A stretch of DNA of 64,000 bases from Mayamaea pseudoterrestris. Its lineage: Eukaryota. Positions 3,301 to 53,248 of this stretch are shown here, piece by piece. The position numbers and the translations under genes were made by a program. The DNA lies in the NCBI GenBank assembly GCA_027923505.1, contig BROI01000016.1:496001-560000 (forward strand). Direction: 5' to 3'. The notes beneath the pieces are model-generated. The model had not been told where the DNA came from, searched no databases, and saw only the letters and a list, made by a program, of their open reading frames with translations. Positions within the stretch are counted from its first letter, which is position 1; every line of letters begins with the position of its first letter.

Positions 3301-3315
3301 GGATACGCTATATAG
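310..3315 (+). CDS. Phosphatidylinositol 4-kinase (type III-like) with N-terminal helical PIK region, PH-like domain and C-terminal kinase domain; 5' end uncertain
   Basis: Motifs FYLPQL, KSNDDLRQE, LGLKDRHNGNIMID, IDFGF and FERAPFKLT. Exon 310-436, intron 437-594 (GTTCGT...CAG) and exon 595-3315 are in frame. A further upstream exon (ORF 2-214?) could not be joined confidently. Confidence 0.9.
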
Positions 3316-3743
3316 TTAAAAGTTGTTTTGTAACGATGGTTGCTATCCATAGTTATCACTCTTGTTTCCACCCTTGGCTACTGCTATCTTTCGCGCGACC
3401 GTACTACGGCAGCTCGTACTACACCATGATAACAATTATCAAAGCTCTGAAATTGATTAAAAGAGACGAAAGCGGAAGGCCACGGTGGAGAAAACGCAAC
3501 CAACCACGATCCTGCATTCCTTTAACACTTTAAAGAATCCGATAGTGTCAAAACCCAGTGAAATCATGTTCTTTGCAATCAGACGGTATGCAAAAAATAT
3601 GAACTGGATTTCAGCCATCGCTTTGTGTTGCCGTAACAAATTTGGTTTGATATTAACGTTTAATTTGAAAAATTATCTACAAAATGCGAGTAAGAGACGG
3701 CATTCACCTTACTCTACGCGATGGATGCACGAAGGTTCAGTAT

Positions 3744-16857: not shown

Positions 16858-19800
16858 TTATTTACGGGTACGCTTGACACACTTTCCCAGTTTGCACCAG
16901 AAATTATTCGCGCATTGCGAGTTGCGTAAGCACTTGCCTCCGCGCGAGATAGCAGCCTTGCAGGTTCGCTGGGAAAGTGCTGGCCCGTCGCAGGTGTTAC
17001 TCGATCCGCAGCAGTCGAGTGCCTTGCGACAAGGCTGGCGGAATGTCTTACAACCCGATTTGTCCTGACTGCATGTGATGCTCAAGCCCGAATAACTCTC
17101 GCTAGCGTAGACGGTGGCATAGACAGTTGTGTCCATTGAAATGACTTGGGTCTCGCACACCTCGTTAGACATGCTAGGAGTACTGGCTTCGCAGTCGTTT
17201 CGACCTGACAATGGGTGCGCCATACCTCCCTGTCGCACGTACAAGTCCGCGTCACCATTAGTGCCTTCAATGTGACATTCCATTTTTGCACCCCGGAGTA
17301 CGTTTGCCAGTTGATAGACGCGAATGATCGAGTCTGTGCTATCGACCCCATCCTGATTTGGCAATGCGACTCCATCCGATAAACTGACTGTCGGACGCTT
17401 TTTGCCACAAACGACTTCCATGTTTTCTGGTTCGGGATCATTAGTGAGATCTCGCACAGCATACACCCTCGCATATACCTCTGTGCTGACCTCAGCCGCA
17501 TCGGATAAACATTCTGCAAAGTTGGTGTCGTAAGGAACACTTGAGGCACAAGCTAGCCTGGAATCGGTCGCGTCTGCCGGTCGTCCAAAGTAGATGCTGA
17601 GCCCTGTGTGAAGGTGCTTGCTCCCCTTCACAAAACATGACACTTGTTCGCTCGCCTCAAGAGGGACGTCCAGTGTGTAATAGTATATATACTCCACGCC
17701 AATGTCTTGGGTGAAGATGTTAGCTTCAGGTTGCACCACCCAGTTCGAGATGGCGGTCACTCGTTGTGGCTCGACCGTGCAAGTCAGAGTCACCCCTTCA
17801 AAGCCCGCGCTATAGGCAAAAAATGAGAGCCTCATGTTCGAATAATCTATCCCGCTTAAGGTCTGCATAGTGAATTCAGCAACTCCTTGATTATATCGAC
17901 CTTCGTCAATGATATCGTAGTTGTAGTCAAAAGCGGACTTGTCGTCAACAAAGCTGACCTCCACAACAGAAGGAATAACATCCGGTGCTTCAATGGAACA
18001 TTTCACGGAAGCCAGGGCTGGAATGTTGGTATACAAACAGGATAGACTGGCATCAATTTTTGCTCGTAATTCTGTCGCAGGTACTCCGTTTTGAATGATA
18101 TTCCAGGCCGAGTCAACCGATGCGCAAGAAAGCTTCAAGTTGTTGAAAGACGAGTAAGCCGAAATAATGATTGACGCAGTTGTCATGTGATCAGAAGGAC
18201 CAACTGCACATGCTTCCACCGAGCCGAAATCTTCCGTCAGGCAGGAGGGAATAGAATCGGTCGCAAAGTATGGACCATTAATTTCCATATAAAGGTCCGC
18301 ATCCCCGTTGTCGCCTTCAAGCGTGCAAGAAAGCAATTTGCCAGCAAGAAGACCCACGTAAAGAAAACTCAGTGTGTCTCCCTTTTCAGCGGACAATCCA
18401 ACTATCGGTATACCATCACTGACCACTGCAGGCCTGCATCCAACTGCGTCCCACGCCGCCTCAACGTTGGTCGCGAATGCGCCAGCATGAAGCAAGGTGC
18501 ATTCTCGAATTTCGTAGAACCCTGATGCGGGAGTCAAGCAAGCGGTATTAGCCATGTAAAAAATATTGGCAGCAGCTAGCAGAGAAGTGTCAAAGTTGGG
18601 ATGAATCGCTGGAACAACAATATCCGTCATCCCGCGCGGATGCGTGCCGCCTTGCACCATGAGAACGAATGCCAAGCTGACAATGCCAGAGTTCCAGTGC
18701 ACGCCGCCATTATCATCATCACCTTGATACCTATCCGGATAGTAATCGGTCTCGCCCTCACCAGTCCTTGTCGGGTCATTCAAATAGCGCAAAGCGTCAC
18801 CTTTCATGCCAGGTGTCCATACCTCTTCCCCAAGCAGCCACGTATTTTTGACCGATGCACCTTCTTGACGATCCATGCAGGCGCCCATAATGTCGGATAT
18901 AGCCTCATTCAAAGCTCCGCTGTCACCATAACCTATAAGTCCCGAGGTGTAATCCGTGACGCCGTGGCTGTTCAATGAAACGAATGAAGTGGTAAGGAGC
19001 GTTGTCGATATAGCTTTCAACTGACGTAAGCTTACTCACGTATACTCATGCCCCACGACATCAAGCGCACGGGAGAGTGGATTGAGCAGTTCACCGTCAC
19101 CATCTCCATACTGTAAGGCGTATCCATCCCATGCCGCATTGTTATAGTTCCTTCCAACGTGCACCTGCGAAACAATTTCAATACCTTGGTCGTCAAGAGA
19201 GTCGCGCCCAAAGTTGCGACGATAGAATTTATATGCAATTCGTGCATTGTTGTGAGCGTCATTGATAACCTTGTCGCGCGTCTTGATCACTCTGTTGCTC
19301 GTGCTGACAACCTTGCATCTGTATGTATTGAAAGAATTATTGCAATTTTCCGTGCGGAGCGCCATGGCGCCCATGACCTGCGGGCGAGTGGCGACAATGT
19401 CGCCCGTGACGACGGATGCGTAGAGTAGCGTTTTTTGGTAGAGTCCCTGCGCTGGCTGATATCCAATCATGCGCACCCACGCCTTGTGAGCGTCTCCGTG
19501 CCTGCCGTCAATGACAATCTTGGTGTCGCAATCGGTGAGCCACGTCGCAGCAGTTTGATACTTTGGATTCTCCAGAATGCCATTGAATGCCTGCTCACAG
19601 GTCACTTTTTCGTTCATATCGACGCTTCCATCCGTTACAAATTCTCCATGAATGGCGTACACTTGGTTGTCCTCATTCAAGTGCATGACAATCGCCGCGT
19701 CCACAACCTCCAAACCTTGGTAGGTTTGCTCGTACCGCAGATGTTTGTGATTTTGCTGGTCCGCCACCATTCGATTCTTGTGCTTGCCGGGACGAATGCT

Positions 19801-20174
19801 TTCGCGCCCCGTCGCTCCAGATCGTTCCTGCAAGACGGTTGTCAACGTTTCTAATGCAGCAGAAAGTAGTTGATTGGCATTCACGGATTCGCCCGAGATG
19901 GAGGGATTACTCTCATTTTCTGGTGCTTGAACAGTTCCAAGACTTCCCTGGAAAAATATGGAGCCGCTCTTTTTGGAAAGCGTCTGGGCCACGGCAACAT
20001 GGGGCGTGACAAAGGCCAACCAAGCCAGAATGCGGGGAATATTGGAGGTGCGAAACGTCCCCGCTGTCCTAGTATTTCCAAATATGACGAGCACGATGCT
20101 GGTGAGTGTTATCCATTTTGCTTGTCAGACACTTTATATCGTTCCACGGCTTGCGTTACTTACCTGGTCCTCAT
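16858..20174 (-). CDS. Secreted thermolysin-family (peptidase M4) zinc metalloprotease A, copy 1: propeptide, catalytic domain, 4 PPC-like domains, 10-Cys tail
   Basis: FTP-type propeptide (HLRYEQTYQG), NNAAWDG, YGDGDG, HEYTH (formed after splicing intron 18968-19039), GALNEAISD, GGVHWNSGI and GDADLY. Likely 11-nt first exon 20174-20164 (ATGAGGACCAG|GTAAGT), with exon 2 starting at 20098 or 20068. Confidence 0.92.
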
Positions 20175-20606
20175 GTTGTTTATGTTGTTGATGAACAAGA
20201 AAAAGTGTCGGATGGCAGCTCGATTCAATCGTGTCAAATCTGTGATTTTTTGTGTGGCCGGCTGTTTTCATGATGTAAATAGGAAAGGTTTTGCCAATTC
20301 ATGATCGGAAATGACTTTTCCGACCCATCATGCGCGCACCAAGGAAACGTCATCATGTCGTAGCAGTTTTACAAGTTGGTTGCCGTGCTCTCGAAGCCTT
20401 GGAAACGCATCATGGCCGCTCCTTTTTCGTCTTCCATCCATCGTCACGAAACGTTGAAGCTTGCCGCACACAATTCTTTTGGAAGCAACCTTGACCAATA
20501 TTGCTATCTTTTGCTCGAGACGCTCCAGTAGAGACGAGAACTCAATCAACGAGAACCAGGAGGAATCGCTGTCTGTTTTTGAATTAAAATAAAACGCAAC
20601 GCCACC

Positions 20607-22679
20607 ATGCTTCAGTACGACAATTCAGCCTTTTACTTTTTCCTGCTGAGCATGCTCAGCTTTTATTTGATTCCATGTACGTTTTCGTATTGTATTTTTG
20701 AAAGAGATGGATGGTGAAAGATGCTGCATGAGAAATATGCGCAGGCGAGATGTTCCATGCAGCGCCAAGGCAATATTGCGACGCGATGGATTGTCATCGT
20801 TTACAATCATTTGCCGCTTTTGTCTTCTCACTCGCTCATTACATGATACAATTTGATTGCAGCATGGTACGGCATTCTATCCAGAGTCTACAGAATTCTT
20901 TCGGCGAGCGACAAGGAGATTGGAGCCGTGACTCGAACGACTGCCGAACAAAAAAAGGCCGAGCAGCTCAAGAAGGAAACCAAGGGTTTGACGCAACTTT
21001 TGACGCGCAGCTTTTTAACCAATCTTGCCGTGACAGTCATTTTGACTCTAGTATTCTTGTGGCTACTATACAAGGTGACTTCGGATGAAGGTCAAGTCAA
21101 CTCGTTTGATCCATTCACCATTTTGGAGATTGACTCCGGCGCCGACTCTAAAATTATCAAAAAGGCCTACCGCCGCCTATCGCTCGTCTACCATCCCGAC
21201 AAGAATCCCGGCGATCGGGCGGCTGCCGCAAAATTCATCATGGTCAAGAAAGCGTACGAGTCACTGACGGATGAAACTGCCAAGGAGAATTGGGAAAAGT
21301 ATGGAAACCCAGACGGCAAGCAGAGTTTGGAGGTGAGCATTGGATTGCCAGCGTTTTTGCTCGATACCAACTACCGCAACTTGGTGTTAGTCGCGTATTT
21401 GATCATCATGGTGGTGGTCATTCCATTGGCAGTATGGACATACTACTCCGACTCGAGTCAGTATGGCGAAAAGGATGTCATGTACGATACCTACTCGTGG
21501 TTTCATCACGCACTTTCGGACAGTTCGCCGGTGAGGTCGCTGCCCGAGTCACTGGCCGGCGCCGCCGAGTTTCGCACGCGCAACAAGCCAACGGATGCGG
21601 GTGAGCGCAAGGAGATTGCCGATTTGATGCAAAAGGATATCAAGGCGAGCATGACCAAGCCGAAATTTAATCATCCTGTGGTTGTCAAGGGAAATTTGTT
21701 ATTGCATGCGCACTTGCTGCGCAAATCAAATTTACTCAGTCCCAAGCTACAAGACGATTTAAAGTACATGCTGCGATGCTCGAATTCATTAATTGAAGCC
21801 ATGATTTCCGTCTGCAAGCATCAAGAGTGGCTCAACACTGCAATTCAATGCATTGAGTTTGGCCAGTGCGTCGCCCAAGCCATGTGGTCCAAGGACAGTC
21901 CACTGCTGCAGCTTCCGCACTTTACACAAGAGGAAGTCAAGCACTGCGAAAATGGCAAGGTCAAGATAACATCCATCAAGCAATACAAGGAGCTGCCGGA
22001 CGACCAAAAGAAGGGAATGAATGACTTTACCGACGCGCAAAAGAGAGATGTTGCGCAGTATCTCAACATTTTCCCCGACATTACTGTTGAAACGAGAGTT
22101 TACACGGACGACGACGAAGATCCAGCCGTGTACGAGGGCGATTTGGTCACGGTGGAGGTGACTCTGACACGCAACAATCTTGCACCCGGCGAAAAGGCGG
22201 GTCTCGTGCACGCTCCATTCTTTCCGTTTCCCAAGAAGGAGTCTTGGTGGGTCATGCTTGGTCAGCTGCATGCTGGCAAGATTGTTTCGATTGAACAATT
22301 GTCCAACCCGAACCAGAAAGTCGTGCACAAGATCAAGTTCCAGGCCCCACCCAAGGGTACATATGTTTTTGATCTGGTTATCAAATCGAACGCCTACGTT
22401 GGATGCGACGCGCAGGTCAAGGTTGACATGGAGACGAAGGACGCATCTACATTACCTGAATACAAGGTGCACGCCGAAGATGCGGAGCTTGATGACGAGC
22501 CCACATTGTTTGAGGAGATGCTGAATGCGAATATCGAGCGCGACAGTGACGACGAGGATTCCGACGATGAGGACGAAGACGCAGACAATGGCCAGGCCAT
22601 GAGTGCAGCAGACAAGAAGAAGGAGCAGTTACGAAAAGCACGACAGGACGATGACGACGATGATTCGGATAGTGACTAA
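20607..22679 (+). CDS. SEC63: ER translocon subunit Sec63 (J-domain + Sec63/Brl domain), copy 1
   Basis: Exon 1 (20607-20676) reads MLQYDNSAFYFFLL; intron 20677-20862. FDPFTILEI, HPDKN, YGNPDG, IGLPAFL, HAPFFPFPKKESWW and an acidic tail. Confidence 0.95.
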
Positions 22680-23083
22680 TTAGTATGTATGTTTGCGTTT
22701 GCTTCATTCCATTCTTTCGCGCATAGTACTATAGCTTGAAACATTTGATAGAACTATGCAGCATTTACTAAAGCATAGGGTGTATGATGCGTACAAAAAC
22801 GTTCCAGCAGACTATGATCGAGACCATTCTGACTGGAGCAAAGATAATCTCACCAGCACCTATCCATTAGTGATGATTGATGCACTACAGGACGTAGGGC
22901 AGTCGATGCTTGCGCAACTTCTTCAGAATCTATGCAGTGTTGTGCTCGCCGCCGAAAGTCAACAGGCGCATCGCGCAGCTAAGGCGCACAACGCTTCATG
23001 ACGCAAGATTGCCGACAAAATTTGCCAGCAATTACTTTAATCTATTACGAAACGCATTGTCACTACAATGTTTCTCTAATAAT

Positions 23084-26000
23084 TTACAAATCTACAATGC
23101 GTCTTCTCCGCCTCCTTCGCCTTGTACGCATGACGCAAACGTTTCTCCTGCAAGTGTATCCCTGTAAGCACTGCGTCTTGCGCACGCAGCGCCCGCCGGG
23201 AGAAACAGCCTTGACGCAAACTTTGTTCGTATCCGTCGTTCCGTCGCAATTGGTGTTCGAGCCACAGCATTGTTTTATTCTCATGCACGCCGCACCAAGT
23301 GGCTTACATGAGGGAGTGCTGATTCGCGAGCACACGAGACTCAGATTTGTAAAACTTGCGTAAGTATGGATCGAAACAAAAACAGACGAGTCGGATACAA
23401 GCGCTTCCGTCGTACATGCTTCCGTAGACGACGGGCCTCCAGATACGCACGAGTATTTGTCTGCGAGTGGATGCGGAGTCGATCCAATTTGAACATACAG
23501 ATCAGCATCACCATCAGCACCGCCACTAATTGAACACGCGACTTTCTCTCCTGTGATGACCCCATCCAATCGGAATACTTGAAGGGCGGTGTCACCGCCA
23601 GCAATGCCAGAAATTCCTGTTTGGATGATTTTGTTTGTAATGGCAATAGGAGTTGGCTCTTGGCCGCAGATAATGTCCGTGCTGATGGCAGTGGACAGAG
23701 TCGAAAAAGGTTGTGTCGTCACTTGCGCGTACACTCCTGCCGATCCATCGGCCAATGAAGAAGTACACTCCTTGACTCCAGTACAGGCGAGTTCAGGCGC
23801 CATTCCCGCGTTCGGTACACTTCCGTAGTATACCTGGAGCTCGGCAACAATATTTTCGCTGGCTTTCATGACACATGTCGCTTGTTTGCCTTGGTCAATA
23901 ACTGTATCTAAGCTGTACAAATTAATGCGGTCATTTTTTCCGACTGTATCCACCTGGAAAGCAGTGTCGGTGTAATACACCCAGTTGGAAAGTGGATTTA
24001 CTTTGATTGGCTGCAACGAACATGTCAAACTCAAGCCACTAAATGCCTGACCGACAGCGTACACTCCGAAATACAAGTTTGTCGTCGCTTTCTGCGGAGA
24101 ATTGAAGATGCACAGCGCAGAACCACGAACAAACTCGCTCCCTGCAACAGAGCACGGATCATACTCGTTGATGTCGCCGTCGTCTGTCATCAACGAACCA
24201 TATAGAGTTGGTACACCGGTCTGGGTAGTGACTTTGCAGCTCACTGCGGTGAGCGGAGGAATACTGGGTAGAATGAACAAATTCGCATAGCCAGGGCTCG
24301 CCGCCAGCCCAGTCTGCGCCACACCATTCGCCAGTGGCGTCCAAGTCGACGTTTTCGTACAAGTCAACGACAGATTGGTAAAGGCGGTATACGCGTAAAC
24401 AGTGATCCAAACCTTGGTCACATCGCCTTGAAAGGAACCAACCGTGCACGCTTCGGTAGAGTATTGTCCAAGTGACGAGCAGCTGGCGCTGCGATCGTAG
24501 TTTCTAATGCTCTGCATGGTCAAATACAAATCAGCATCTCCATTGTCACCGTTAAGGCTGCACGAGACTGTCGTTCCGTATGGAACGCCGGCAATTCCAT
24601 ACTGGAGCAGCTGTCCCTTGACGGCATTAATGCCGGTGATGGGTGTGTTGGTATACAAGGTCACCAAGCCAACGGCTTGCCAGGCCGCCTCAACGGACTT
24701 TACATGATTTCCAGCATGAAGCATGGTGCACTCCCGAATTTCATAAAACCCAGACAGCGGCGTCAAACAAGCAGTGTTGGCCATGTAAAAGATTTTAGCC
24801 GCTATTATCAAGGACGTGTCAAAGTCTTGATCAATGGGAGGGACCACCACATTCGACTTGCCGCGCGGATGCTTGCCGCCTTGCACCATGAGCGTAAAGG
24901 CAAGGTTCATGATACCCGAGTTCCAATGAACACCACCGGCATCACTTGTACCCTGGTACCTGTCTGGGTACCAGTCAACGCCGGAATCCCCTTGCGTTGG
25001 GTTTGTCATGTAGCGAAAGGCATCTCCTGGAACGCTTGGCGTATATACTTTCTCGCCAATCATCCAAGTGTTGGCAATGTTTGCACCATTCTCGCGGTCC
25101 ACGCAGGCACCCATAATGTCCGAAAAGGCTTCATTCAATGCGCCCGATTCTGCTTGATACACCAAGCCACTTGTCCACTGCGTGACACCATGACTTTGTT
25201 GATGATAGATGATAGTGTGAGCGAGAAAGTATCTCCATGTGCACGTCGTGCGTATCAAAAGACCCCCGCAAGACTCACCTCAACTCGTGGCCCACAACGT
25301 CAATGCCCCGACTCAGTGGCCCCAAAACGTTGCCGTCGCCATCACCATAGGTCATACTCGTCGTATCCCAAAACGCATTATTGTAATTTGTAGAGTAGTG
25401 CACATGCGAAATCAACGTCATGCCATTGTCATCAATCGAGTCGCGACCAAAGTGTTTCTTGTAAAACTCCCACGTGCTAATCGCAAAGTTGTGCGCGTCA
25501 TTCACCACAGGGTCACTGGTGGCAAGTCTCCTGCTGCTGGTGCTCACGACGCGGCAATTGTCGGTGCGGTCCGCGTTGAGGCAATTCTCCGTCCGCAGGC
25601 TCAGCGCGCCGTGCACCTGCGGACGTACGGCGACAATATCTCCCGTCACCACGGAGGCATACAGAAACGTCTTTTGATAGGGACCTTCAATCGGCATGTA
25701 ACCAATCATGCGCTGCCATGCTTTATGGGCATCGCCGTACTGATCAAACACAATCTTGACGTCACACTCCGTCAACCAAACGGCGTCGCTGCCGTAGTTT
25801 GGATCCGTCAGCGTGTCGGCAAACGCATCCTCGCAACTCACTCGCACCTTGGTATCCACGGATCCTTCCATGACAAACTCGCCGTTGACCGCATACACCT
25901 TTCCCCGCTTATCCAAATGCATCACCATGGCAGCATCCACCACGGAAACGTTTTGATACGTTTGCTGAAACCGCACATGCTGGTGTCCCTTGACATCCTT

Positions 26001-26234
26001 GACGAGCTTGTTTTTGCGTTTCGAAACACGAAAATCTTCCCGGCCCGTGGCGCCGAGGCTGGTGCGCAGAATGCTGGCCAAGGTGGAAGTTGCCGCCGGA
26101 AGGGCGCCGTTGGCTGCAACGTTCGTGTCGGACACTTGTCCCAGCGAACCTCGCGTAAAGGTGAAGCCTCCCGTCTTGTCGGATGCGACAATGGTTGCCA
26201 ACAGTAGAATGATGCAAGGAATACGCATCGTCAT
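23084..26234 (-). CDS. Secreted thermolysin-family (M4) metalloprotease B, copy 1
   Basis: Signal peptide, HVRFQQTYQ propeptide, NNAFWD, HELSH after splicing intron 25194-25278, GALNEAFSD, GGVHWNSGI, GDADLY x2, 10-Cys tail and a poly-Arg end. Confidence 0.92.
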
Positions 26235-26266
26235 GATTGTCTTTAGTTACTCTGTTTTGTTCAACT

Positions 26267-29200
26267 TTAGTAGCTCGAGGCTCGTGACCGAGTCGCAATA
26301 TGTGAGCTATCGGATGGCAATAGAGATGCAGCAATGTGCCAATCGAATGTCGAGAACCTGGTGCGATGTCCGCAGCAGTCGAGTGCCTTGCGACAAGGCT
26401 GGCGGAATGTCTTACAACCCGATTTGTCCTGACTGCATGTGATGCTCAAGCCCGAATAACTCTCGCTAGCGTAGACGGTGGCATAGACAGTTGTGTCCAT
26501 TGAAATGACTTGGGTCTCGCACACCTCGTTAGACATGCTAGGAGTACTGGCTTCGCAGTCGTTTCGACCTGACAATGGGTGCGCCATACCTCCCTGTCGC
26601 ACGTACAAGTCCGCGTCACCATTAGTGCCTTCAATGTGACATTCCATTTTTGCACCCCGGAGTACGTTTGCCAGTTGATAGACGCGAATGATCGAGTCTG
26701 TGCTATCGACCCCATCCTGATTTGGCAATGCGACTCCATCCGATAAACTGACTGTCGGACGCTTTTTGCCACAAACGACTTCCATGTTTTCTGGTTCGGG
26801 ATCATTAGTGAGATCTCGCACAGCATACACCCTCGCATATACCTCTGTGCTGACCTCAGCCGCATCGGATAAACATTCTGCAAAGTTGGTGTCGTAAGGA
26901 ACACTTGAGGCACAAGCTAGCCTGGAATCGGTCGCGTCTGCCGGTCGTCCAAAGTAGATGCTGAGCCCTGTGTGAAGGTGCTTGCTCCCCTTCACAAAAC
27001 ATGACACTTGTTCGCTCGCCTCAAGAGGGACGTCCAGTGTGTAATAGTATATATACTCCACGCCAATGTCTTGGGTGAAGATGTTAGCTTCAGGTTGCAC
27101 CACCCAGTTCGAGATGGCGGTCACTCGTTGTGGCTCGACCGTGCAAGTCAGAGTCACCCCTTCAAAGCCCGCGCTATAGGCAAAAAATGAGAGCCTCATG
27201 TTCGAATAATCTATCCCGCTTAAGGTCTGCATAGTGAATTCAGCAACTCCTTGATTATATCGACCTTCGTCAATGATATCGTAGTTGTAGTCAAAAGCGG
27301 ACTTGTCGTCAACAAAGCTGACCTCCACAACAGAAGGAATAACATCCGGTGCTTCAATGGAACATTTCACGGAAGCCAGGGCTGGAATGTTGGTATACAA
27401 ACAGGATAGACTGGCATCAATTTTTGCTCGTAATTCTGTCGCAGGTACTCCGTTTTGAATGATATTCCAGGCCGAGTCAACCGATGCGCAAGAAAGCTTC
27501 AAGTTGTTGAAAGACGAGTAAGCCGAAATAATGATTGACGCAGTTGTCATGTGATCAGAAGGACCAACTGCACATGCTTCCACCGAGCCGAAATCTTCCG
27601 TCAGGCAGGAGGGAATAGAATCGGTCGCAAAGTATGGACCATTAATTTCCATATAAAGGTCCGCATCCCCGTTGTCGCCTTCAAGCGTGCAAGAAAGCAA
27701 TTTGCCAGCAAGAAGACCCACGTAAAGAAAACTCAGTGTGTCTCCCTTTTCAGCGGACAATCCAACTATCGGTATACCATCACTGACCACTGCAGGCCTG
27801 CATCCAACTGCGTCCCACGCCGCCTCAACGTTGGTCGCGAATGCGCCAGCATGAAGCAAGGTGCATTCTCGAATTTCGTAGAACCCTGATGCGGGAGTCA
27901 AGCAAGCGGTATTAGCCATGTAAAAAATATTGGCAGCAGCTAGCAGAGAAGTGTCAAAGTTGGGATGAATCGCTGGAACAACAATATCCGTCATCCCGCG
28001 CGGATGCGTGCCGCCTTGCACCATGAGAACGAATGCCAAGCTGACAATGCCAGAGTTCCAGTGCACGCCGCCATTATCATCATCACCTTGATACCTATCC
28101 GGATAGTAATCGGTCTCGCCCTCACCAGTCCTTGTCGGGTCATTCAAATAGCGCAAAGCGTCACCTTTCATGCCAGGTGTCCATACCTCTTCCCCAAGCA
28201 GCCACGTATTTTTGACCGATGCACCTTCTTGACGATCCATGCAGGCGCCCATAATGTCGGATATAGCCTCATTCAAAGCTCCGCTGTCACCATAACCTAT
28301 AAGTCCCGAGGTGTAATCCGTGACGCCGTGGCTGTTCAATGAAACGAATGAAGTGGTAAGGAGCGTTGTCGATATAGCTTTCAACTGACGTAAGCTTACT
28401 CACGTATACTCATGCCCCACGACATCAAGCGCACGGGAGAGTGGATTGAGCAGTTCACCGTCACCATCTCCATACTGTAAGGCGTATCCATCCCATGCCG
28501 CATTGTTATAGTTCCTTCCAACGTGCACCTGCGAAACAATTTCAATACCTTGGTCGTCAAGAGAGTCGCGCCCAAAGTTGCGACGATAGAATTTATATGC
28601 AATTCGTGCATTGTTGTGAGCGTCATTGATAACCTTGTCGCGCGTCTTGATCACTCTGTTGCTCGTGCTGACAACCTTGCATCTGTATGTATTGAAAGAA
28701 TTATTGCAATTTTCCGTGCGGAGCGCCATGGCGCCCATGACCTGCGGGCGAGTGGCGACAATGTCGCCCGTGACGACGGATGCGTAGAGTAGCGTTTTTT
28801 GGTAGAGTCCCTGCGCTGGCTGATATCCAATCATGCGCACCCACGCCTTGTGAGCGTCTCCGTGCCTGCCGTCAATGACAATCTTGGTGTCGCAATCGGT
28901 GAGCCACGTCGCAGCAGTTTGATACTTTGGATTCTCCAGAATGCCATTGAATGCCTGCTCACAGGTCACTTTTTCGTTCATATCGACGCTTCCATCCGTT
29001 ACAAATTCTCCATGAATGGCGTACACTTGGTTGTCCTCATTCAAGTGCATGACAATCGCCGCATCCACAACCTCCAAAGCTTGGTAGGTTTGCTCATACC
29101 GCAGATGTTTGTGATTTTGCTGGTCCGCCACCATTCGATTCTTGTGCTTGCCGGGACGAATGCTTTCGCGCCCCGTCGCTCCAGATCGTTCCTGCAAGAC

Positions 29201-29538
29201 GGTTGTCAACGTTTCTAATGCAGCAGAAAGTAGTTGATTGGCATTCACGGATTCGCCCGAGATGGAGGGATTACTCTCATTTTCTGGTGCTTGAACAGTT
29301 CCAAGACTTCCCTGGAAAAATATGGAGCCGCTCTTTTTGGAAAGCGTCTGGGCCACGGCAACATGGGGCGTGACAAAGGCCAACCAAGCCAGAATGCGGG
29401 GAATATTGGAGGTGCGAAACGTCCCCGCTGTCCTAGTATTTCCAAATATGACGAGCACGATGCTGGTGAGTGTTATCCATTTTGCTTGTCAGACACTTTA
29501 TATCGTTCCACGGCTTGCGTTACTTACCTGGTCCTCAT
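26267..29538 (-). CDS. M4 metalloprotease A, copy 2, C-terminally truncated/chimeric at the duplication junction
   Basis: Protein matches copy 1 except for one G>A change in the propeptide and a 33-aa novel tail after ...ALDCCG. Intron 28332-28403. Confidence 0.85.
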
Positions 29539-29970
29539 GTTGTTTATGTTGTTGATGAACAAGAAAAAGTGTCGGATGGCAGCTCGATTCAATCGTGTCA
29601 AATCTGTGATTTTTTGTGTGGCCGGCTGTTTTCATGATGTAAATAGGAAAGGTTTTGCCAATTCATGATCGGAAATGACTTTTCCGACCCATCATGCGCG
29701 CACCAAGGAAACGTCATCATGTCGTAGCAGTTTTACAAGTTGGTTGCCGTGCTCTCGAAGCCTTGGAAACGCATCATGGCCGCTCCTTTTTCGTCTTCCA
29801 TCCATCGTCACGAAACGTTGAAGCTTGCCGCACACAATTCTTTTGGAAGCAACCTTGACCAATATTGCTATCTTTTGCTCGAGACGCTCCAGTAGAGACG
29901 AGAACTCAATCAACGAGAACCAGGAGGAATCGCTGTCTGTTTTTGAATTAAAATAAAACGCAACGCCACC

Positions 29971-32043
29971 ATGCTTCAGTACGACAATTCAGCCTTTTAC
30001 TTTTTCCTGCTGAGCATGCTCAGCTTTTATTTGATTCCATGTACGTTTTCGTATTGTATTTTTGAAAGAGATGGATGGTGAAAGATGCTGCATGAGAAAT
30101 ATGCGCAGGCGAGATGTTCCATGCAGCGCCAAGGCAATATTGCGACGCGATGGATTGTCATCGTTTACAATCATTTGCCGCTTTTGTCTTCTCACTCGCT
30201 CATTACATGATACAATTTGATTGCAGCATGGTACGGCATTCTATCCAGAGTCTACAGAATTCTTTCGGCGAGCGACAAGGAGATTGGAGCCGTGACTCGA
30301 ACGACTGCCGAACAAAAAAAGGCCGAGCAGCTCAAGAAGGAAACCAAGGGTTTGACGCAACTTTTGACGCGCAGCTTTTTAACCAATCTTGCCGTGACAG
30401 TCATTTTGACTCTAGTATTCTTGTGGCTACTATACAAGGTGACTTCGGATGAAGGTCAAGTCAACTCGTTTGATCCATTCACCATTTTGGAGATTGACTC
30501 CGGCGCCGACTCTAAAATTATCAAAAAGGCCTACCGCCGCCTATCGCTCGTCTACCATCCCGACAAGAATCCCGGCGATCGGGCGGCTGCCGCAAAATTC
30601 ATCATGGTCAAGAAAGCGTACGAGTCACTGACGGATGAAACTGCCAAGGAGAATTGGGAAAAGTATGGAAACCCAGACGGCAAGCAGAGTTTGGAGGTGA
30701 GCATTGGATTGCCAGCGTTTTTGCTCGATACCAACTACCGCAACTTGGTGTTAGTCGCGTATTTGATCATCATGGTGGTGGTCATTCCATTGGCAGTATG
30801 GACATACTACTCCGACTCGAGTCAGTATGGCGAAAAGGATGTCATGTACGATACCTACTCGTGGTTTCATCACGCACTTTCGGACAGTTCGCCGGTGAGG
30901 TCGCTGCCCGAGTCACTGGCCGGCGCCGCCGAGTTTCGCACGCGCAACAAGCCAACGGATGCGGGTGAGCGCAAGGAGATTGCCGATTTGATGCAAAAGG
31001 ATATCAAGGCGAGCATGACCAAGCCGAAATTTAATCATCCTGTGGTTGTCAAGGGAAATTTGTTATTGCATGCGCACTTGCTGCGCAAATCAAATTTACT
31101 CAGTCCCAAGCTACAAGACGATTTAAAGTACATGCTGCGATGCTCGAATTCATTAATTGAAGCCATGATTTCCGTCTGCAAGCATCAAGAGTGGCTCAAC
31201 ACTGCAATTCAATGCATTGAGTTTGGCCAGTGCGTCGCCCAAGCCATGTGGTCCAAGGACAGTCCACTGCTGCAGCTTCCGCACTTTACACAAGAGGAAG
31301 TCAAGCACTGCGAAAATGGCAAGGTCAAGATAACATCCATCAAGCAATACAAGGAGCTGCCGGACGACCAAAAGAAGGGAATGAATGACTTTACCGACGC
31401 GCAAAAGAGAGATGTTGCGCAGTATCTCAACATTTTCCCCGACATTACTGTTGAAACGAGAGTTTACACGGACGACGACGAAGATCCAGCCGTGTACGAG
31501 GGCGATTTGGTCACGGTGGAGGTGACTCTGACACGCAACAATCTTGCACCCGGCGAAAAGGCGGGTCTCGTGCACGCTCCATTCTTTCCGTTTCCCAAGA
31601 AGGAGTCTTGGTGGGTCATGCTTGGTCAGCTGCATGCTGGCAAGATTGTTTCGATTGAACAATTGTCCAACCCGAACCAGAAAGTCGTGCACAAGATCAA
31701 GTTCCAGGCCCCACCCAAGGGTACATATGTTTTTGATCTGGTTATCAAATCGAACGCCTACGTTGGATGCGACGCGCAGGTCAAGGTTGACATGGAGACG
31801 AAGGACGCATCTACATTACCTGAATACAAGGTGCACGCCGAAGATGCGGAGCTTGATGACGAGCCCACATTGTTTGAGGAGATGCTGAATGCGAATATCG
31901 AGCGCGACAGTGACGACGAGGATTCCGACGATGAGGACGAAGACGCAGACAATGGCCAGGCCATGAGTGCAGCAGACAAGAAGAAGGAGCAGTTACGAAA
32001 AGCACGACAGGACGATGACGACGATGATTCGGATAGTGACTAA
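29971..32043 (+). CDS. SEC63: Sec63, copy 2
   Basis: Translation is identical to copy 1. Intron 30041-30226. Confidence 0.93.
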
Positions 32044-32447
32044 TTAGTATGTATGTTTGCGTTTGCTTCATTCCATTCTTTCGCGCATAGTACTATAGCT
32101 TGAAACATTTGATAGAACTATGCAGCATTTACTAAAGCATAGGGTGTATGATGCGTACAAAAACGTTCCAGCAGACTATGATCGAGACCATTCTGACTGG
32201 AGCAAAGATAATCTCACCAGCACCTATCCATTAGTGATGATTGATGCACTACAGGACGTAGGGCAGTCGATGCTTGCGCAACTTCTTCAGAATCTATGCA
32301 GTGTTGTGCTCGCCGCCGAAAGTCAACAGGCGCATCGCGCAGCTAAGGCGCACAACGCTTCATGACGCAAGATTGCCGACAAAATTTGCCAGCAATTACT
32401 TTAATCTATTACGAAACGCATTGTCACTACAATGTTTCTCTAATAAT

Positions 32448-35400
32448 TTACAAATCTACAATGCGTCTTCTCCGCCTCCTTCGCCTTGTACGCATGACGC
32501 AAACGTTTCTCCTGCAAGTGTATCCCTGTAAGCACTGCGTCTTGCGCACGCAGCGCCCGCCGGGAGAAACAGCCTTGACGCAAACTTTGTTCGTATCCGT
32601 CGTTCCGTCGCAATTGGTGTTCGAGCCACAGCATTGTTTTATTCTCATGCACGCCGCACCAAGTGGCTTACATGAGGGAGTGCTGATTCGCGAGCACACG
32701 AGACTCAGATTTGTAAAACTTGCGTAAGTATGGATCGAAACAAAAACAGACGAGTCGGATACAAGCGCTTCCGTCGTACATGCTTCCGTAGACGACGGGC
32801 CTCCAGATACGCACGAGTATTTGTCTGCGAGTGGATGCGGAGTCGATCCAATTTGAACATACAGATCAGCATCACCATCAGCACCGCCACTAATTGAACA
32901 CGCGACTTTCTCTCCTGTGATGACCCCATCCAATCGGAATACTTGAAGGGCGGTGTCACCGCCAGCAATGCCAGAAATTCCTGTTTGGATGATTTTGTTT
33001 GTAATGGCAATAGGAGTTGGCTCTTGGCCGCAGATAATGTCCGTGCTGATGGCAGTGGACAGAGTCGAAAAAGGTTGTGTCGTCACTTGCGCGTACACTC
33101 CTGCCGATCCATCGGCCAATGAAGAAGTACACTCCTTGACTCCAGTACAGGCGAGTTCAGGCGCCATTCCCGCGTTCGGTACACTTCCGTAGTATACCTG
33201 GAGCTCGGCAACAATATTTTCGCTGGCTTTCATGACACATGTCGCTTGTTTGCCTTGGTCAATAACTGTATCTAAGCTGTACAAATTAATGCGGTCATTT
33301 TTTCCGACTGTATCCACCTGGAAAGCAGTGTCGGTGTAATACACCCAGTTGGAAAGTGGATTTACTTTGATTGGCTGCAACGAACATGTCAAACTCAAGC
33401 CACTAAATGCCTGACCGACAGCGTACACTCCGAAATACAAGTTTGTCGTCGCTTTCTGCGGAGAATTGAAGATGCACAGCGCAGAACCACGAACAAACTC
33501 GCTCCCTGCAACAGAGCACGGATCATACTCGTTGATGTCGCCGTCGTCTGTCATCAACGAACCATATAGAGTTGGTACACCGGTCTGGGTAGTGACTTTG
33601 CAGCTCACTGCGGTGAGCGGAGGAATACTGGGTAGAATGAACAAATTCGCATAGCCAGGGCTCGCCGCCAGCCCAGTCTGCGCCACACCATTCGCCAGTG
33701 GCGTCCAAGTCGACGTTTTCGTACAAGTCAACGACAGATTGGTAAAGGCGGTATACGCGTAAACAGTGATCCAAACCTTGGTCACATCGCCTTGAAAGGA
33801 ACCAACCGTGCACGCTTCGGTAGAGTATTGTCCAAGTGACGAGCAGCTGGCGCTGCGATCGTAGTTTCTAATGCTCTGCATGGTCAAATACAAATCAGCA
33901 TCTCCATTGTCACCGTTAAGGCTGCACGAGACTGTCGTTCCGTATGGAACGCCGGCAATTCCATACTGGAGCAGCTGTCCCTTGACGGCATTAATGCCGG
34001 TGATGGGTGTGTTGGTATACAAGGTCACCAAGCCAACGGCTTGCCAGGCCGCCTCAACGGACTTTACATGATTTCCAGCATGAAGCATGGTGCACTCCCG
34101 AATTTCATAAAACCCAGACAGCGGCGTCAAACAAGCAGTGTTGGCCATGTAAAAGATTTTAGCCGCTATTATCAAGGACGTGTCAAAGTCTTGATCAATG
34201 GGAGGGACCACCACATTCGACTTGCCGCGCGGATGCTTGCCGCCTTGCACCATGAGCGTAAAGGCAAGGTTCATGATACCCGAGTTCCAATGAACACCAC
34301 CGGCATCACTTGTACCCTGGTACCTGTCTGGGTACCAGTCAACGCCGGAATCCCCTTGCGTTGGGTTTGTCATGTAGCGAAAGGCATCTCCTGGAACGCT
34401 TGGCGTATATACTTTCTCGCCAATCATCCAAGTGTTGGCAATGTTTGCACCATTCTCGCGGTCCACGCAGGCACCCATAATGTCCGAAAAGGCTTCATTC
34501 AATGCGCCCGATTCTGCTTGATACACCAAGCCACTTGTCCACTGCGTGACACCATGACTTTGTTGATGATAGATGATAGTGTGAGCGAGAAAGTATCTCC
34601 ATGTGCACGTCGTGCGTATCAAAAGACCCCCGCAAGACTCACCTCAACTCGTGGCCCACAACGTCAATGCCCCGACTCAGTGGCCCCAAAACGTTGCCGT
34701 CGCCATCACCATAGGTCATACTCGTCGTATCCCAAAACGCATTATTGTAATTTGTAGAGTAGTGCACATGCGAAATCAACGTCATGCCATTGTCATCAAT
34801 CGAGTCGCGACCAAAGTGTTTCTTGTAAAACTCCCACGTGCTAATCGCAAAGTTGTGCGCGTCATTCACCACAGGGTCACTGGTGGCAAGTCTCCTGCTG
34901 CTGGTGCTCACGACGCGGCAATTGTCGGTGCGGTCCGCGTTGAGGCAATTCTCCGTCCGCAGGCTCAGCGCGCCGTGCACCTGCGGACGTACGGCGACAA
35001 TATCTCCCGTCACCACGGAGGCATACAGAAACGTCTTTTGATAGGGACCTTCAATCGGCATGTAACCAATCATGCGCTGCCATGCTTTATGGGCATCGCC
35101 GTACTGATCAAACACAATCTTGACGTCACACTCCGTCAACCAAACGGCGTCGCTGCCGTAGTTTGGATCCGTCAGCGTGTCGGCAAACGCATCCTCGCAA
35201 CTCACTCGCACCTTGGTATCCACGGATCCTTCCATGACAAACTCGCCGTTGACCGCATACACCTTTCCCCGCTTATCCAAATGCATCACCATGGCAGCAT
35301 CCACCACGGAAACGTTTTGATACGTTTGCTGAAACCGCACATGCTGGTGTCCCTTGACATCCTTGACGAGCTTGTTTTTGCGTTTCGAAACACGAAAATC

Positions 35401-35598
35401 TTCCCGGCCCGTGGCGCCGAGGCTGGTGCGCAGAATGCTGGCCAAGGTGGAAGTTGCCGCCGGAAGGGCGCCGTTGGCTGCAACGTTCGTGTCGGACACT
35501 TGTCCCAGCGAACCTCGCGTAAAGGTGAAGCCTCCCGTCTTGTCGGATGCGACAATGGTTGCCAACAGTAGAATGATGCAAGGAATACGCATCGTCAT
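32448..35598 (-). CDS. M4 metalloprotease B, copy 2 (retains native upstream region)
   Basis: Translation is identical to copy 1. Intron 34558-34642. Confidence 0.92.
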
Positions 35599-36167
35599 GA
35601 TTGTCTTTAGTTACTCTGTTTTGTTCAACTTTAGTAGCTCGAGGCTCGTGACCGAGTCGCAATATGTGAGCTATCGGATGGCAATAGAGATGCAGCAATG
35701 TGCCAATCGAATGTCGAGAACCTGGTGCGATGCAAGCAAAAGCGTTCCAAGCTGTCAAGCAAATCTTGCTGTCAAATATGGAGTCAATCGTTGAAAAGTC
35801 GAAACGTTCCAACGTGCTACCGTCCAAGAATCGGACTGCCAGAAGTGATTTTTCGAAACCATCCAACGCCATACGCCAAGGGCGCTCTGCCAATTCCGTT
35901 CGGTTCAACGACTCGTGTCAAAACTGTGAAGGTCATGTAAGAGGTCATTAATGACTCTGCTTAATTTTTCAGAGTCATTTGATGTACTGTTTGACATATA
36001 CCTGACGAAGGCAATGTTCCATGGAATATCAATGTTCCGGACGCCGAACGACTGTTCTTCGATGTTCGAATCGTTGGCGAGTGAGCACATGCAGTTCTCA
36101 AAACAATGATGATCACCTTGGCGCCACTGCTAGCAAAGCCTTGCATGGCTGGACATGAATCTGAACA

Positions 36168-49002: not shown

Positions 49003-49223
49003 TTTCAGAGTTTAATTAGTTACAATCAGTTTATTTCTAATTTGCTTGGGTTGGACGAAGCTAAATTCTGGTTCTACCGGTAGTCAAGGTGGACCGCGGT
49101 AGAGTGCAATAGCAAGATGTCGATAGTGAGAAGTCGCACCGGCATACAATCGAGTCGTCGCGATTCATCCGATTTCACCACCACCAAAACGATTCGTTTT
49201 GTCATGATGAACACTTTGTGAAC

Positions 49224-50375
49224 ATGTCGCTCGACAACGGAGACCATCAGCAGCACCAAACTCCTTTACGTACATTAACGGAGGATGTCAACTCTTGGAA
49301 CAAGGCAAGCTTGCTGAGTGTTTCGCAAATCACCGCCGGTGGTTTGCAGCTACTCTTCCAACGTTCGCGCGAGATGCGTCGACTCGTGCGCGAAAACGGC
49401 GGCGGAAACCATCTGCTGCAGCACAAGCTATTGGCCAGTGTCTTTTACGAGGCATCCACGCGCACGGCATGCAGCTTCCAGTCCGCCATGATGCGACTGG
49501 GTGGCAACTATTTGCATGTGGAAGGTCACTACGGCGGAAACTCGTCGGCGGCCAAAAAGGGGGAGTCGCTGGAAGATACCATCAAATGTTTGGAATGCTA
49601 CGTGGACGTGACGGTGCTGCGGCATCCAGTCCAAGGAAGCGTGGAAGCAGTCATTCACATGGCGAATAAGCCGGTGATTAACGCTGGTGATGGTGTGGGA
49701 GAGCATCCGACGCAGGTATTTTTGTGCTTTTGTTTGCATTATATACTGGAGTATAAACTTTTGTGATTGTCACTCATCTCAACAATTTGGTTCTCATTTT
49801 GTTCTCACTGTTACTCATTTCATATGTAGGCACTTTTGGACGTGTTTACCATTTACGACGAGCTAAAAATGCACGAGGCCGAGCAGAAACGATCCCATTT
49901 GGTCGTTGTTATCTTGGGCGATTTGAAACACGGGCGCACCGTTCATTCCCTGGCCAAGCTCCTCTGCACGTCCAACATTTGGCAGGAGTCGCTGACGCTT
50001 CGTTACTGCTCACCCGATGGCTTGGAAATGCCGCCGTACGTGCAGCACGACTGCGCGCAACACGAACACGTGCAGCAGGAAACCATCCATCACCTTCGCA
50101 CCGCCATTGAAGGTGCGGATGTTTTGTATGTCACGCGCATACAGCGGGAGCGGTTCGACAACTTGGACGACTACGAAAAAGCGAATGGTTCCTACGTGGT
50201 GGACGCGTCACTCATGGAGAATGCGCCAGCGGAAATGGTCGTTTTGCATCCATTGCCCCGGGTGAACGAAATTACGACCGAGGTGGATGCGGATCCGCGA
50301 GCAGCCTACTTTCGGCAAATGGAAAACGGAATGTTTGTGCGTATGGCTCTGCTGTCTCTCATATTAGGAGTGTAA
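49224..50375 (+). CDS. pyrB: Aspartate carbamoyltransferase (stand-alone)
   Basis: FYEASTRT, KKGESLEDT, NAGDGVGEHPTQ|ALLD (intron 49716-49829), GDLKHGRTVHSL, RIQRERF and HPLPRVNEI. Confidence 0.96.
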
Positions 50376-50694
50376 TGCGACTGGATCTGCAGCTAGCAAC
50401 GCGTTCAACTACAAACCAGCGTATACTCGTAGTCGCTTTATAAAATGTTTTAATCATCAATCTTGCGCAATACAAATGCTTGCTGCTCCAATCGCTTAGA
50501 ATATGTACAATTTGAATATTTTCCCTCTCTTGCGCAACACTGCTCCCTGCTTCTTGCTCCCTACTTCCTGCTCCAGTTGGCAATTGGGTAGCTAAATGAA
50601 GCGATTCGGATAACCCGGACATGCAACAAGCGAACGCCAGAGATCAAATCAGCAGCATCATCCGCACGCAGCGTCACACAAACACTCGCTTTCC

Positions 50695-51658
50695 ATGGCA
50701 CCGACGGCAGGAAGCCCTTCTGCAGCTGCTAATCCACCTGCTGCTGCCAAGGCGCAGCGGCGGGGAGCCTACAAGCAACAGTCGCGCGCCTATCCTCGCG
50801 GCGTCTGTTTGGATTTTCGCAAGCTTGGTGGCTTGAGCTTGCTTTCGTACATTGATCATCATGGTATGTTTAAAGTGCGTGTGTTCGGACGTGGAGTCGC
50901 ATTGAACGTATGAAACTAGTCATAATTGCATTCAATATATGTAGAAATTAATTGGATCTAATCATTCTCTTTCTTATTCAGGAGTCCCAGTTCGTTCCGA
51001 CGCTCCCCTCCACGAACTCGCCGTCGCTGTCGCGCGCCACTTTGAAGCTTCCGATGTGGACGAGGAGGAATGCATCAGCGGCTTTTTGGAGCGCCTCGAG
51101 AAAGGGCCAACGGCTCCCACCGACTACACCTTTCGGACCGCCTACTTTGATGGCCGCGGACCACCCGTTTCCGTCCGCAAGCGCCGCCGCACCAAGTGGG
51201 CGGCCCGGCCGGGTGAACAAGTGGCGGCCAAGGTGACGCGGACGGATGAAAACGGGTCCTGGATTCTCGCCGTCGTGCAGCGCTACTACGCCGACACGGA
51301 TACCTATGACGTTCAGGATGAGGATGATACCAGCAAGCTGATTCGCTTGCCGTGGAGTCATGTAATGCGACTATCCACTGGAACGGAAGGACGCTTTCAT
51401 CGCAGCACGGACTGCATGGCCATTTTTCCGGAAACAACCTCCTTCTATCGCGCCAAGGTGAGCAAGAATCCCATTTGGAAGTTGGACAAGAGTGGACCAG
51501 TTGTGAAGGAGATTATTGTCAAGTTTGAGGATGATGAGGATGCCCAAGGAAGGACCCCTCACCGCCGCGTGCCGAGTCGCTATGTTATTCCGTTGCCGGC
51601 TGATTACTTTTACGATGAAGCGGATGATGTTGATTTGGTGCCGCCAACGGCAAAATAA
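50695..51658 (+). CDS. Chromatin protein: SAP30-like Sin3-binding domain fused to SGF29-like tandem Tudor domain
   Basis: Exon 50695-50863 and exon 50982-51658 join in phase 1. LDFRKL...LAVAVARHFE..VDEEECISGF, then GEQVAAK..WILA..YDVQDED..AIFPETTSFYRA..FEDDED..VPSRYV. Confidence 0.8.
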
Positions 51659-52036
51659 GAATTTTTAATGTTGCAGTGATGGCATGTGGAGGAGACTGGA
51701 GATGTGCATGTAGATGATAGGACTAAGATCAATCATAGTAGCAAAAGTTTTTGCAGGCTTTGTGAAACCATTGATCCTTCCACCTCCCCGCCCCGCGAAT
51801 GTGCGACGTTGTATCTATTCTTCTATTACTGGTTCTTTCGGTGGGGGATGGTTTTGGTGGGGGATGGCCGTCAAAAACAACACGGGCTCTATCGCTCGTG
51901 AGGATGCATCGCCATCAAGACCTCGTACAACGTCGCACCGAGTCTAAACGCGACACTCGGAAATGCTCGAGCATCGCACGCACCCATTATTCTTCGTTGT
52001 CCCTCTCATCGACCCAGACTTGCTGCTGCGCTTGCC

Positions 52037-53248
52037 ATGTCTAGGACGGCGTCAATACTACAGCTCTTGATACTGTGTAGTAGTCTAGCGAAATCATCGT
52101 TTGCTTGGATAGCGCCATCAGTGCCGCTCATTGCCACCACCAGGAACACAATACAGCCATTACGAGCAGCACGACGACGAGCACTCTTCATGTCATTATC
52201 CTCTACTCCTTCGCCATCATCCACCATGACGACATCTACTACTCCTGCTACTACAGAAGAACGAAAAATTGTCGCCAAGTCTAGTCTGCTACTGCTGGAG
52301 CATGTGAACATAAACATTCCCTCGCACGAGCATATTGACTTTTACTTAAATTTACTGAATCTTGGACTGGACCCTCGCAAGGCTGGCAACGTCATGAACA
52401 ATAACGAAACTAGCAGCAAGACACTCTGGGCCAATGCTGGCGTGTCGCAGTTTCATTTGCCGTACGGAGAAACGGCGCAGGTGATTCCAGGTCACGTGGG
52501 CTTGACGTTTCGCAACTTACAACAATTGCGAAACCGCATGCAACAATTTCCAAGCTCGTTCCAGTCGGCGGTGGAAACCATTGACGCACGCACCAACGTT
52601 ACTGTCATGACACTGACGGATCACTACGGCAATGTCTTCAAGTGTCGGCAGCAGCAAAGTCTCATCATGACGGATTCCGACTACCAGCTGCAGCCGCAAC
52701 CAATCGTTGGAACGAGCGAAAGTGACGTTGCCACTCGGGGCGCTGATTTGTTCGCACGCTACGGCAAGACGATCAGCGACTGCACCGGGATTTCCTACTT
52801 GGAATTTAATTGTCCGGTCGAAACGGCGGCAGTCATTGCCAACTTTTACGAGCATGTTTTGGGGGCGGCCACGACAGTGATGAGTGACGCCAACACGACC
52901 GTCGCCATTATTGCCATTGGCCAGATTGATGAACACGGACGTTCCGATCAGTCGCTCGTGTTTCGAGAAACCAGTGAACCACTGCCGCCCTACGACGGCC
53001 ACCACGTTGCTTTATACGTAGGCGAATCGCCAAGCGCCTTTGACCAAGCCTATATGAATTGCGAGCAGGCCAATGTGATTTGGGTCAATCCGCGGTTCAG
53101 CGACGCGGCAAATACAATCGAGGCGGCGCGCCACTGCAAGCAGTTTCGGTTCAAGGATATCGTGAATCTCAACACGGGCCAAGTGGTGTACGAGCTCGAG
53201 CATGAAGTGCGATCCATGGAGCATGAGTGCTGGACGGGTAGGAGATGA
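52037..53248 (+). CDS. Glyoxalase/VOC-superfamily protein, probably plastid-targeted
   Basis: Signal peptide ending SFA-W and a Ser/Thr/Arg-rich transit region. LEHVNINIP, QFHLP, GHVGL, GHHVALYV and ELEHEVRS. Confidence 0.75.
   Translation: MSRTASILQLLILCSSLAKSSFAWIAPSVPLIATTRNTIQPLRAARRRALFMSLSSTPSPSSTMTTSTTPATTEERKIVAKSSLLLLEHVNINIPSHEHIDFYLNLLNLGLDPRKAGNVMNNNETSSKTLWANAGVSQFHLPYGETAQVIPGHVGLTFRNLQQLRNRMQQFPSSFQSAVETIDARTNVTVMTLTDHYGNVFKCRQQQSLIMTDSDYQLQPQPIVGTSESDVATRGADLFARYGKTISDCTGISYLEFNCPVETAAVIANFYEHVLGAATTVMSDANTTVAIIAIGQIDEHGRSDQSLVFRETSEPLPPYDGHHVALYVGESPSAFDQAYMNCEQANVIWVNPRFSDAANTIEAARHCKQFRFKDIVNLNTGQVVYELEHEVRSMEHECWTGRR

Follow-up and report, generated by a model that had tools for sequence, protein, structure and literature searches.

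A diatom gene joining a SAP30-like domain to an SGF29-type tandem Tudor: a candidate Sin3-deacetylase subunit that may read H3K4 methylation

The enzymes that work at active promoters are determined by the readers of H3K4me3. SGF29 is the textbook reader of the acetyltransferase complexes, and the coiled coil at its N-terminus is its anchor in the SAGA/ADA acetyltransferase module. The opposing deacetylase complex has SAP30 among its core subunits. In animals and yeast, the deacetylase is brought to H3K4-methylated promoters through the PHD finger of ING1/2 or Pho23, which acts with SAP30 and Sin3. Diatom H3K4 methylation and histone acetylation have already been mapped; to our knowledge, the chromatin complexes of diatoms are almost unstudied. 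The SAP30 SID is described in an excerpt of one source as tripartite and as occupying the PAH3 domain of Sin3 constitutively, with 1:1 stoichiometry and an affinity of ~10 nM (PMC6295471). According to an excerpt of a second source, the SAP30-PAH3 contact of the mouse NMR structure is retained in the yeast Rpd3L complex (PMC10224958).

The window, which is the whole 64-kb stretch of Mayamaea pseudoterrestris DNA that was analysed, contains on its + strand a two-exon gene whose predicted product combines parts of both proteins. An in-frame stop is found upstream at 50611 and the next ATG, at 50695, was taken as the start codon. Exon 1 (50695..50863, 169 nt) encodes residues 1-56 and the first base of codon 57, and spans the N-terminus, of which residues 1-36 are predicted to be disordered in the AlphaFold2 model, and helix 1 of the SAP30-like domain. 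The intron (50864..50981, 118 nt, phase 1) reads GTATGT...ATTCAG and has a GC content of 34%, against 57% in the exons. The end of exon 1 and the start of the intron read ...CATCATG/GTATGT at 50863/50864, and the codon split by the intron, G/GA, specifies Gly57. Exon 2 (50982..51658) encodes the remaining SAP30-like domain, a basic linker and the tandem Tudor, and ends with the stop codon TAA at 51656-51658. The joined exons (50695-50863 + 50982-51658) give an 846-nt coding sequence without an internal stop and a protein of 281 aa, the length stated in the original prediction. The same prediction held that the ORF track misses the fusion because of the intron, and the unspliced frame does end at 72 aa. 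The sequence motifs that it quoted are all present, beginning at residues 40 (DFRKL), 74 (ARHF), 82 (VDEEE), 150 (WILA), 165 (YDVQDEDD), 205 (FPETTSFY) and 238 (FEDDED).

The fusion gene was confirmed as a real two-exon gene with its exons joined, because three lines of evidence agree at the junction. First, the window protein and the NCBI protein MPSEU_000163800 of the same species (P0003, 280 aa) are identical at 274 of 281 alignment columns with one gap, and the splice junction ...SYIDHH/GVPVR... is identical in P0003. Second, the MMETSP proteins of other diatoms, which are transcript-derived and labelled 'type:complete', are collinear over the junction (...SYIDHHGV.VR...). Third, contigs from public runs were compared over 50400-51900, the material being four runs of one study, of unrecorded run type and with several related variants inside. 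In three of the four runs (X2, X3 and X4) one contig each omits precisely the 118 bases with GT..AG ends, and in the remaining run, X1, a contig reads through the intron.

The SAP30 profile also crosses the junction. Pfam SAP30_Sin3_bdg (PF13867) matches exon 2 alone with 27.4 bits and residues 47-92 of the full-length P0003 with 35.6 bits, against a cut-off of 22.2, and thus joining the exons improves the match. In favour of a gene-prediction artefact, with two genes or a pseudogene whose exons are not joined in vivo, are the X1 contig that passes through the intron and the finding that exon 1 on its own matches no Pfam family. Against this stand the rise of the SAP30 score on joining, the exact GT..AG splice in contigs of 3/4 runs, the collinear transcript-derived proteins of other diatoms and the end of the unspliced frame after 72 aa. 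The artefact explanation is close to refuted.

The same junction is where gene models of related proteins go astray. Seven of 25 aligned relatives deviate precisely at DHH/GV, five with unrelated N-termini and two with in-frame insertions (P0019, P0083, P0096, P0099, P0122, P0060 and P0086). The intron position therefore appears to be conserved among diatoms and to be often mis-modelled, which would hide the SAP30 domain in those database records.

The SAP30 Sin3-binding-like domain occupies approximately residues 37-97 (50803..51103, + strand, split by the intron) and consists of three predicted helices. The full-length Pfam scores were taken on P0003, whose SAP30 block differs from that of the window protein solely at S80A and S89G. 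In five other diatom proteins SAP30_Sin3_bdg scores 31.4-40.3 bits, all above the cut-off, and the block is nearly invariant throughout an alignment of 25 diatom sequences. Distant relatives outscore the diatoms; the Ectocarpus protein P0259 reaches up to 56.6 bits (E 3.1e-15). When language-model features (Atlas) of residues 30-105 were compared with Tudor-bearing clusters excluded, the nearest were SAP30_Sin3_bdg clusters, with a score of 0.90, and the SAP30 clusters matched were from fungi and green algae only. The AlphaFold2 model, with a mean pLDDT of 67 and a pTM of 0.50 overall, places helices at residues 48-55, 65-79 and 83-96 with a moderate pLDDT of 60-75. Solved SAP30 chains are matched weakly. 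A 25-sequence profile reaches E 0.11-0.13, and a brown-algal relative aligns with the mouse SAP30 SID (2LD7) at E 0.075. The 2LD7 alignment covers the conserved D-L...L..Y..H...R...L...V..HF...V.E pattern. Pfam and the language-model features, and weakly the solved-SID match, support the assignment of the N-terminal domain as SAP30-like.

Compared with SAP30 and yeast Sap30 of the Sin3L/Rpd3L complexes (2LD7, 8GA8), the diatom protein shares PF13867 above the cut-off and the conserved residue pattern, and three helices are predicted with moderate confidence at the aligned positions. It differs in that it resembles the solved chains weakly in direct sequence comparison (E about 0.1). Its SID lies at the N-terminus, not at the C-terminus as in SAP30, and a tandem Tudor comes after it. 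It also lacks the zf-SAP30 zinc finger of animal SAP30/SAP30L, which gave no Pfam match at E up to 1. That finger is not known from yeast Sap30 either, and so would not be universal in the SAP30 family.

The C-terminal part of the protein, residues 134-262 (51212..51598, + strand), is an SGF29-type tandem Tudor according to Pfam, a PDB match and Foldseek. SGF29_Tudor (PF07039) aligns over profile positions 2-132 of 132 with residues 133-261 of P0003, with 96.3 bits against a cut-off of 23.8 (E 1.9e-27), and matches the window exon 2 alone with E 9.7e-28. Both profiles named in the original prediction were thus found, SAP30 at 35.6 bits against 22.2 and the SGF29 Tudor at the above E-value on P0003. 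The PDB sequence match is to human SGF29 (E 7.6e-13). In Foldseek the best matches are the complexes of human SGF29 with H3K4me2/3 (3MEV, 3ME9), with E 1.2e-10, a TM score of 0.62 (target) and 34% identity, and the Tudors of 53BP1 and UHRF1 rank behind them. The AlphaFold2 model of the Tudor is well defined, with pLDDT 72-90.

The residues with which human SGF29 reads the histone tail have counterparts in the diatom protein. D169 and D171 (51317..51325) align with human D194 and D196, which we take to be the pocket for Ala1 of H3. In the alignment with the human protein, the segment ALYPQTTCFYRA...LFED of human SGF29 pairs with the segment AIFPETTSFYRA...KFED of the window protein. The methyl-lysine cage of human SGF29 consists of Y238, Y245, F264 and D266, as described in an excerpt of the source (PMC4589357). 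The residue spacings of 7, 19 and 2 fix their places in the 3ME9 alignment, which maps them to F205, Y212, F238 and D240 (51425..51532, + strand) of the window protein. The sole cage substitution relative to human SGF29 is Y238 to F, at F205. According to the same excerpt, the thermodynamics of H3K4me3 and H3K4me2 binding by the human Y238F mutant cannot be told apart from those of wild type (PMC4589357). All six reader positions, the four of the cage together with D169 and D171, do not vary in any of the 25 diatom sequences aligned. With the SGF29 cage and acidic residues conserved, the identity proposed earlier for this Tudor, a predicted reader of H3K4 methylation, was borne out.

A linker connects the two domains. 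It carries the basic stretch RKRRR at residues 122-126 (51176..51190, + strand), and around this stretch the 25-sequence alignment has the consensus R/K-K-R-K/R-R. The stretch is probably a nuclear localisation signal.

The pairing of the two domains extends well beyond Mayamaea. A word-indexed search for close relatives, with exon 2 as the query and an E limit of 0.001, returned 519 proteins. Among the best 120 of these, precomputed Pfam assignments show both domains in 76 and the Tudor alone in 44, the latter being mostly short models. The named close relatives among the matches listed are diatoms: Mayamaea, Entomoneis, Epithemia, Seminavis, Nitzschia and Cylindrotheca. For distant relatives, P0003 was compared exhaustively by HMMER with 1.84 billion representatives; 567 match with E no higher than 0.001, 161 reach 1e-10 and 41 reach 1e-30. 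From the best 150 of the 567, 57 proteins hand-picked for length and low identity were scanned with Pfam. SAP30 and Tudor domains occur together in 37 of the 57, in 33 of them above the SAP30 cut-off, at identities down to 33%. Since so many relatives keep both domains to such low identity, the pairing would be old and under selection. The fusion is named from the brown algae Pylaiella, Scytosiphon and Ectocarpus, from Chrysoparadoxa and from the dictyochophyte Rhizochromulina, and is found also in a EukProt record that bears the name of the foraminifer Bolivina.

By its domain content, then, the SAP30-Tudor fusion is a family broad in ochrophytes and no diatom oddity. The distribution of the protein, which had been put forward as a check, thus covers diatoms, brown algae, Chrysoparadoxa and a dictyochophyte. 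The original prediction had spoken of a single adaptor; the domain fusion stood but the word "single" did not, since the protein is one member of a broad ochrophyte family whose other members often have a forkhead-like domain. A forkhead-like winged helix is found C-terminally in 10 of the 57 distant relatives, one of them (P0146) above the Pfam cut-off, and nine of the ten carry SAP30 as well. Outside the diatoms, this winged helix is often the last domain of SAP30-Tudor proteins (P0146, P0212, P0187, P0139, P0251 and others). The diatom fusion proteins end ~20 residues past the Tudor, without a winged helix.

In eight of the 57 distant relatives, an ING N-terminal domain (PF12998, E 2e-5 to 1e-14) precedes the Tudor and replaces SAP30. 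These ING-N-Tudor proteins are named from Tribonema, Vaucheria, Chrysoparadoxa and Triparma, and further searches add pelagophytes and Discosporangium; there were none among the named diatom matches in the relatives scanned. The examples P0232, P0242/P0275, P0252, P0271, P0282, P0286 and P0289 are 260-296 aa long, reach up to 55 bits with PF12998 and are without a PHD finger. Judged by their domains, the proteins look like ING with the H3K4me3 reader swapped. They share with the diatom fusion the Tudor type and the lineage, and in Chrysoparadoxa, which carries both forms (fusion P0187 and ING-N-Tudor P0232), the genome too. They differ in having the PF12998 domain instead of SAP30, and their Tudors form a separate clade. 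In a maximum-likelihood tree of the Tudor region (35 rows, 130 of 202 columns), 11 of 12 ING-N-Tudor proteins fall in one clade with support 99/99 and with no fusion protein inside. The fusion proteins form no single resolved clade; the diatom fusions cluster with three unnamed fusion proteins with support 91/90.

Another Tudor of this type is encoded elsewhere in the Mayamaea pseudoterrestris genome. The protein MPSEU_000327200 (P0235), of 1108 aa, consists of an AlkB-like 2OG-Fe(II) oxygenase, an SRA domain, which is a domain that binds methyl-DNA, and a C-terminal SGF29-type Tudor that is 44% identical to the Tudor of the fusion. In the tree it also groups with the diatom fusions, on a long branch.

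These data bear on whether the protein is simply the SGF29 of diatoms. As a subunit of SAGA/ADA, with a diverged anchor that merely resembles SAP30, it would bring acetylation to H3K4me3. Its Tudor is of the SGF29 type with every reader residue, and it shares with SGF29 of the SAGA/ATAC HAT module (3ME9, 3MP1) the tandem Tudor, the H3K4me2/3 cage and the acidic residues at the D194/D196 positions. A classical SGF29 was found from no named diatom among the 57 proteins scanned of the best 150 representatives, nor in word-index searches from Chrysoparadoxa P0232 (24 matches) and Triparma P0271 (8 matches), which leaves room for the protein as the diatom SAGA subunit; these searches are, however, limited to a word index and to the best 150. 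The N-terminal half argues the other way. The long N-terminal coiled coil of SGF29 is absent from the AlphaFold2 model and residues 37-97 form the SAP30-like domain in its place; Pfam finds no ING-like or other N-terminal family at E up to 1. Furthermore, the SAP30_Sin3_bdg cut-off is passed by six of the six diatom proteins tested, and the match is strong in brown algae. An SGF29 of SAGA/ADA is, on balance, improbable.

It is somewhat less unlikely, though still not what we expect, that the protein is a chromatin reader in some other complex, its SAP30-like helices having a partner other than Sin3 or its Tudor recognising a mark other than H3K4me2/3. The SGF29-type Tudor is found in this lineage joined to the SAP30 SID, to ING-N, to the forkhead-like winged helix and to the AlkB-like oxygenase with SRA (P0235), and such recombination with several modules points to a module reused in varied contexts. 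Yet both domains of the fusion keep the residues typical of their families and score accordingly in the profiles, and no feature suggests a different ligand.

The function that we favour, and consider moderately likely, is that of a subunit of a Sin3/Rpd3L-type histone deacetylase complex that reads H3K4me2/3 by a Tudor, replacing the PHD finger of ING. The gene product would be a nuclear chromatin adaptor. Its N-terminal three-helix SAP30-type SID would dock on PAH3 of Sin3 as SAP30 does, and its C-terminal tandem Tudor would bind the free N-terminus of H3 bearing K4me2/3. The predicted outcome is that deacetylase activity is tethered to H3K4-methylated promoter nucleosomes. Sin3 binding, H3K4me2/3 binding and the effect on acetylation are each inferred. 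The adaptor of the original prediction, one that could recruit a deacetylase to H3K4me3 promoters, is thus supported by its domains and plausible in its function.

ING1, ING2 and yeast Pho23 share this proposed job, a link between Sin3-HDAC and H3K4me3. In these proteins a PHD finger recognises the mark and an N-terminal domain of their own provides entry to the complex, whereas in the diatom protein the Tudor sits covalently on the SAP30 anchor. There is thus no homology between the readers. The logic of coupling a reader to Sin3 has a precedent, because, in an excerpt of one source, ING2 is said to connect mSin3A/HDAC with H3K4me3 and to interact with SAP30 (PMC6827349). The SAP30 anchor fused to another H3K4me3 reader would place the same wiring in one chain. 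More tentatively, and doubtful when all of its parts are taken jointly, one may picture ochrophytes as linking H3K4me3 to deacetylation in a single SAP30-Tudor chain, with the Tudor as a portable reader and with the classical SAGA-bound SGF29 of diatoms perhaps lost as its fold switched from acetylating to deacetylating machinery.

In the literature library searched in full text, no published description of the SAP30-SGF29 Tudor architecture was found. Database labels already pair the domains: a JGI label reads 'SGF29 tudor-like domain/Sin3 binding region of ... SAP30'. The UniRef label is 'SGF29 C-terminal domain-containing protein', and the Mayamaea protein is 'hypothetical'. Its two domains are each known, but their conserved combination, which may be functionally analogous to ING plus SAP30, would be undescribed. 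One conserved protein in ecologically dominant algae suggests that a reader fold may have been re-plugged into the opposite enzyme. With only 281 aa, it offers a small and testable entry to the wiring of chromatin complexes beyond animals, fungi and plants.

The gene order around the locus offers no functional hint, as is expected in a eukaryote. The upstream neighbour is a two-exon aspartate carbamoyltransferase gene (49113-50375). Pfam matched no family in the downstream neighbour, an ORF of 448 aa, or in the four antisense ORFs examined over the gene, and found no PAH/Sin3 domain in 26 large ORFs of the window. Rfam gave one chance-level match only over 50300-52100 (E 0.78).

Two further observations were made in the window. 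Just 3' of the gene, at 51726-51827, contig depth in run X1 is 3,000-4,000, compared with 20-100 elsewhere, and loose contig ends pile up at 51741 and 51803, which suggests an element of ~60 nt common to many X1 contigs. Within the window the element is present a single time, and Rfam does not match it. At 16990-35746, a unit of 9,364 bp stands in two tandem copies, which agree at 99.78% over 9,393 nt, with 21 mismatches. Each copy contains a Sec63/DnaJ gene along with thermolysin-like M4 peptidase ORFs, and the pair reflects either duplication in very recent times or an artefact of assembly.
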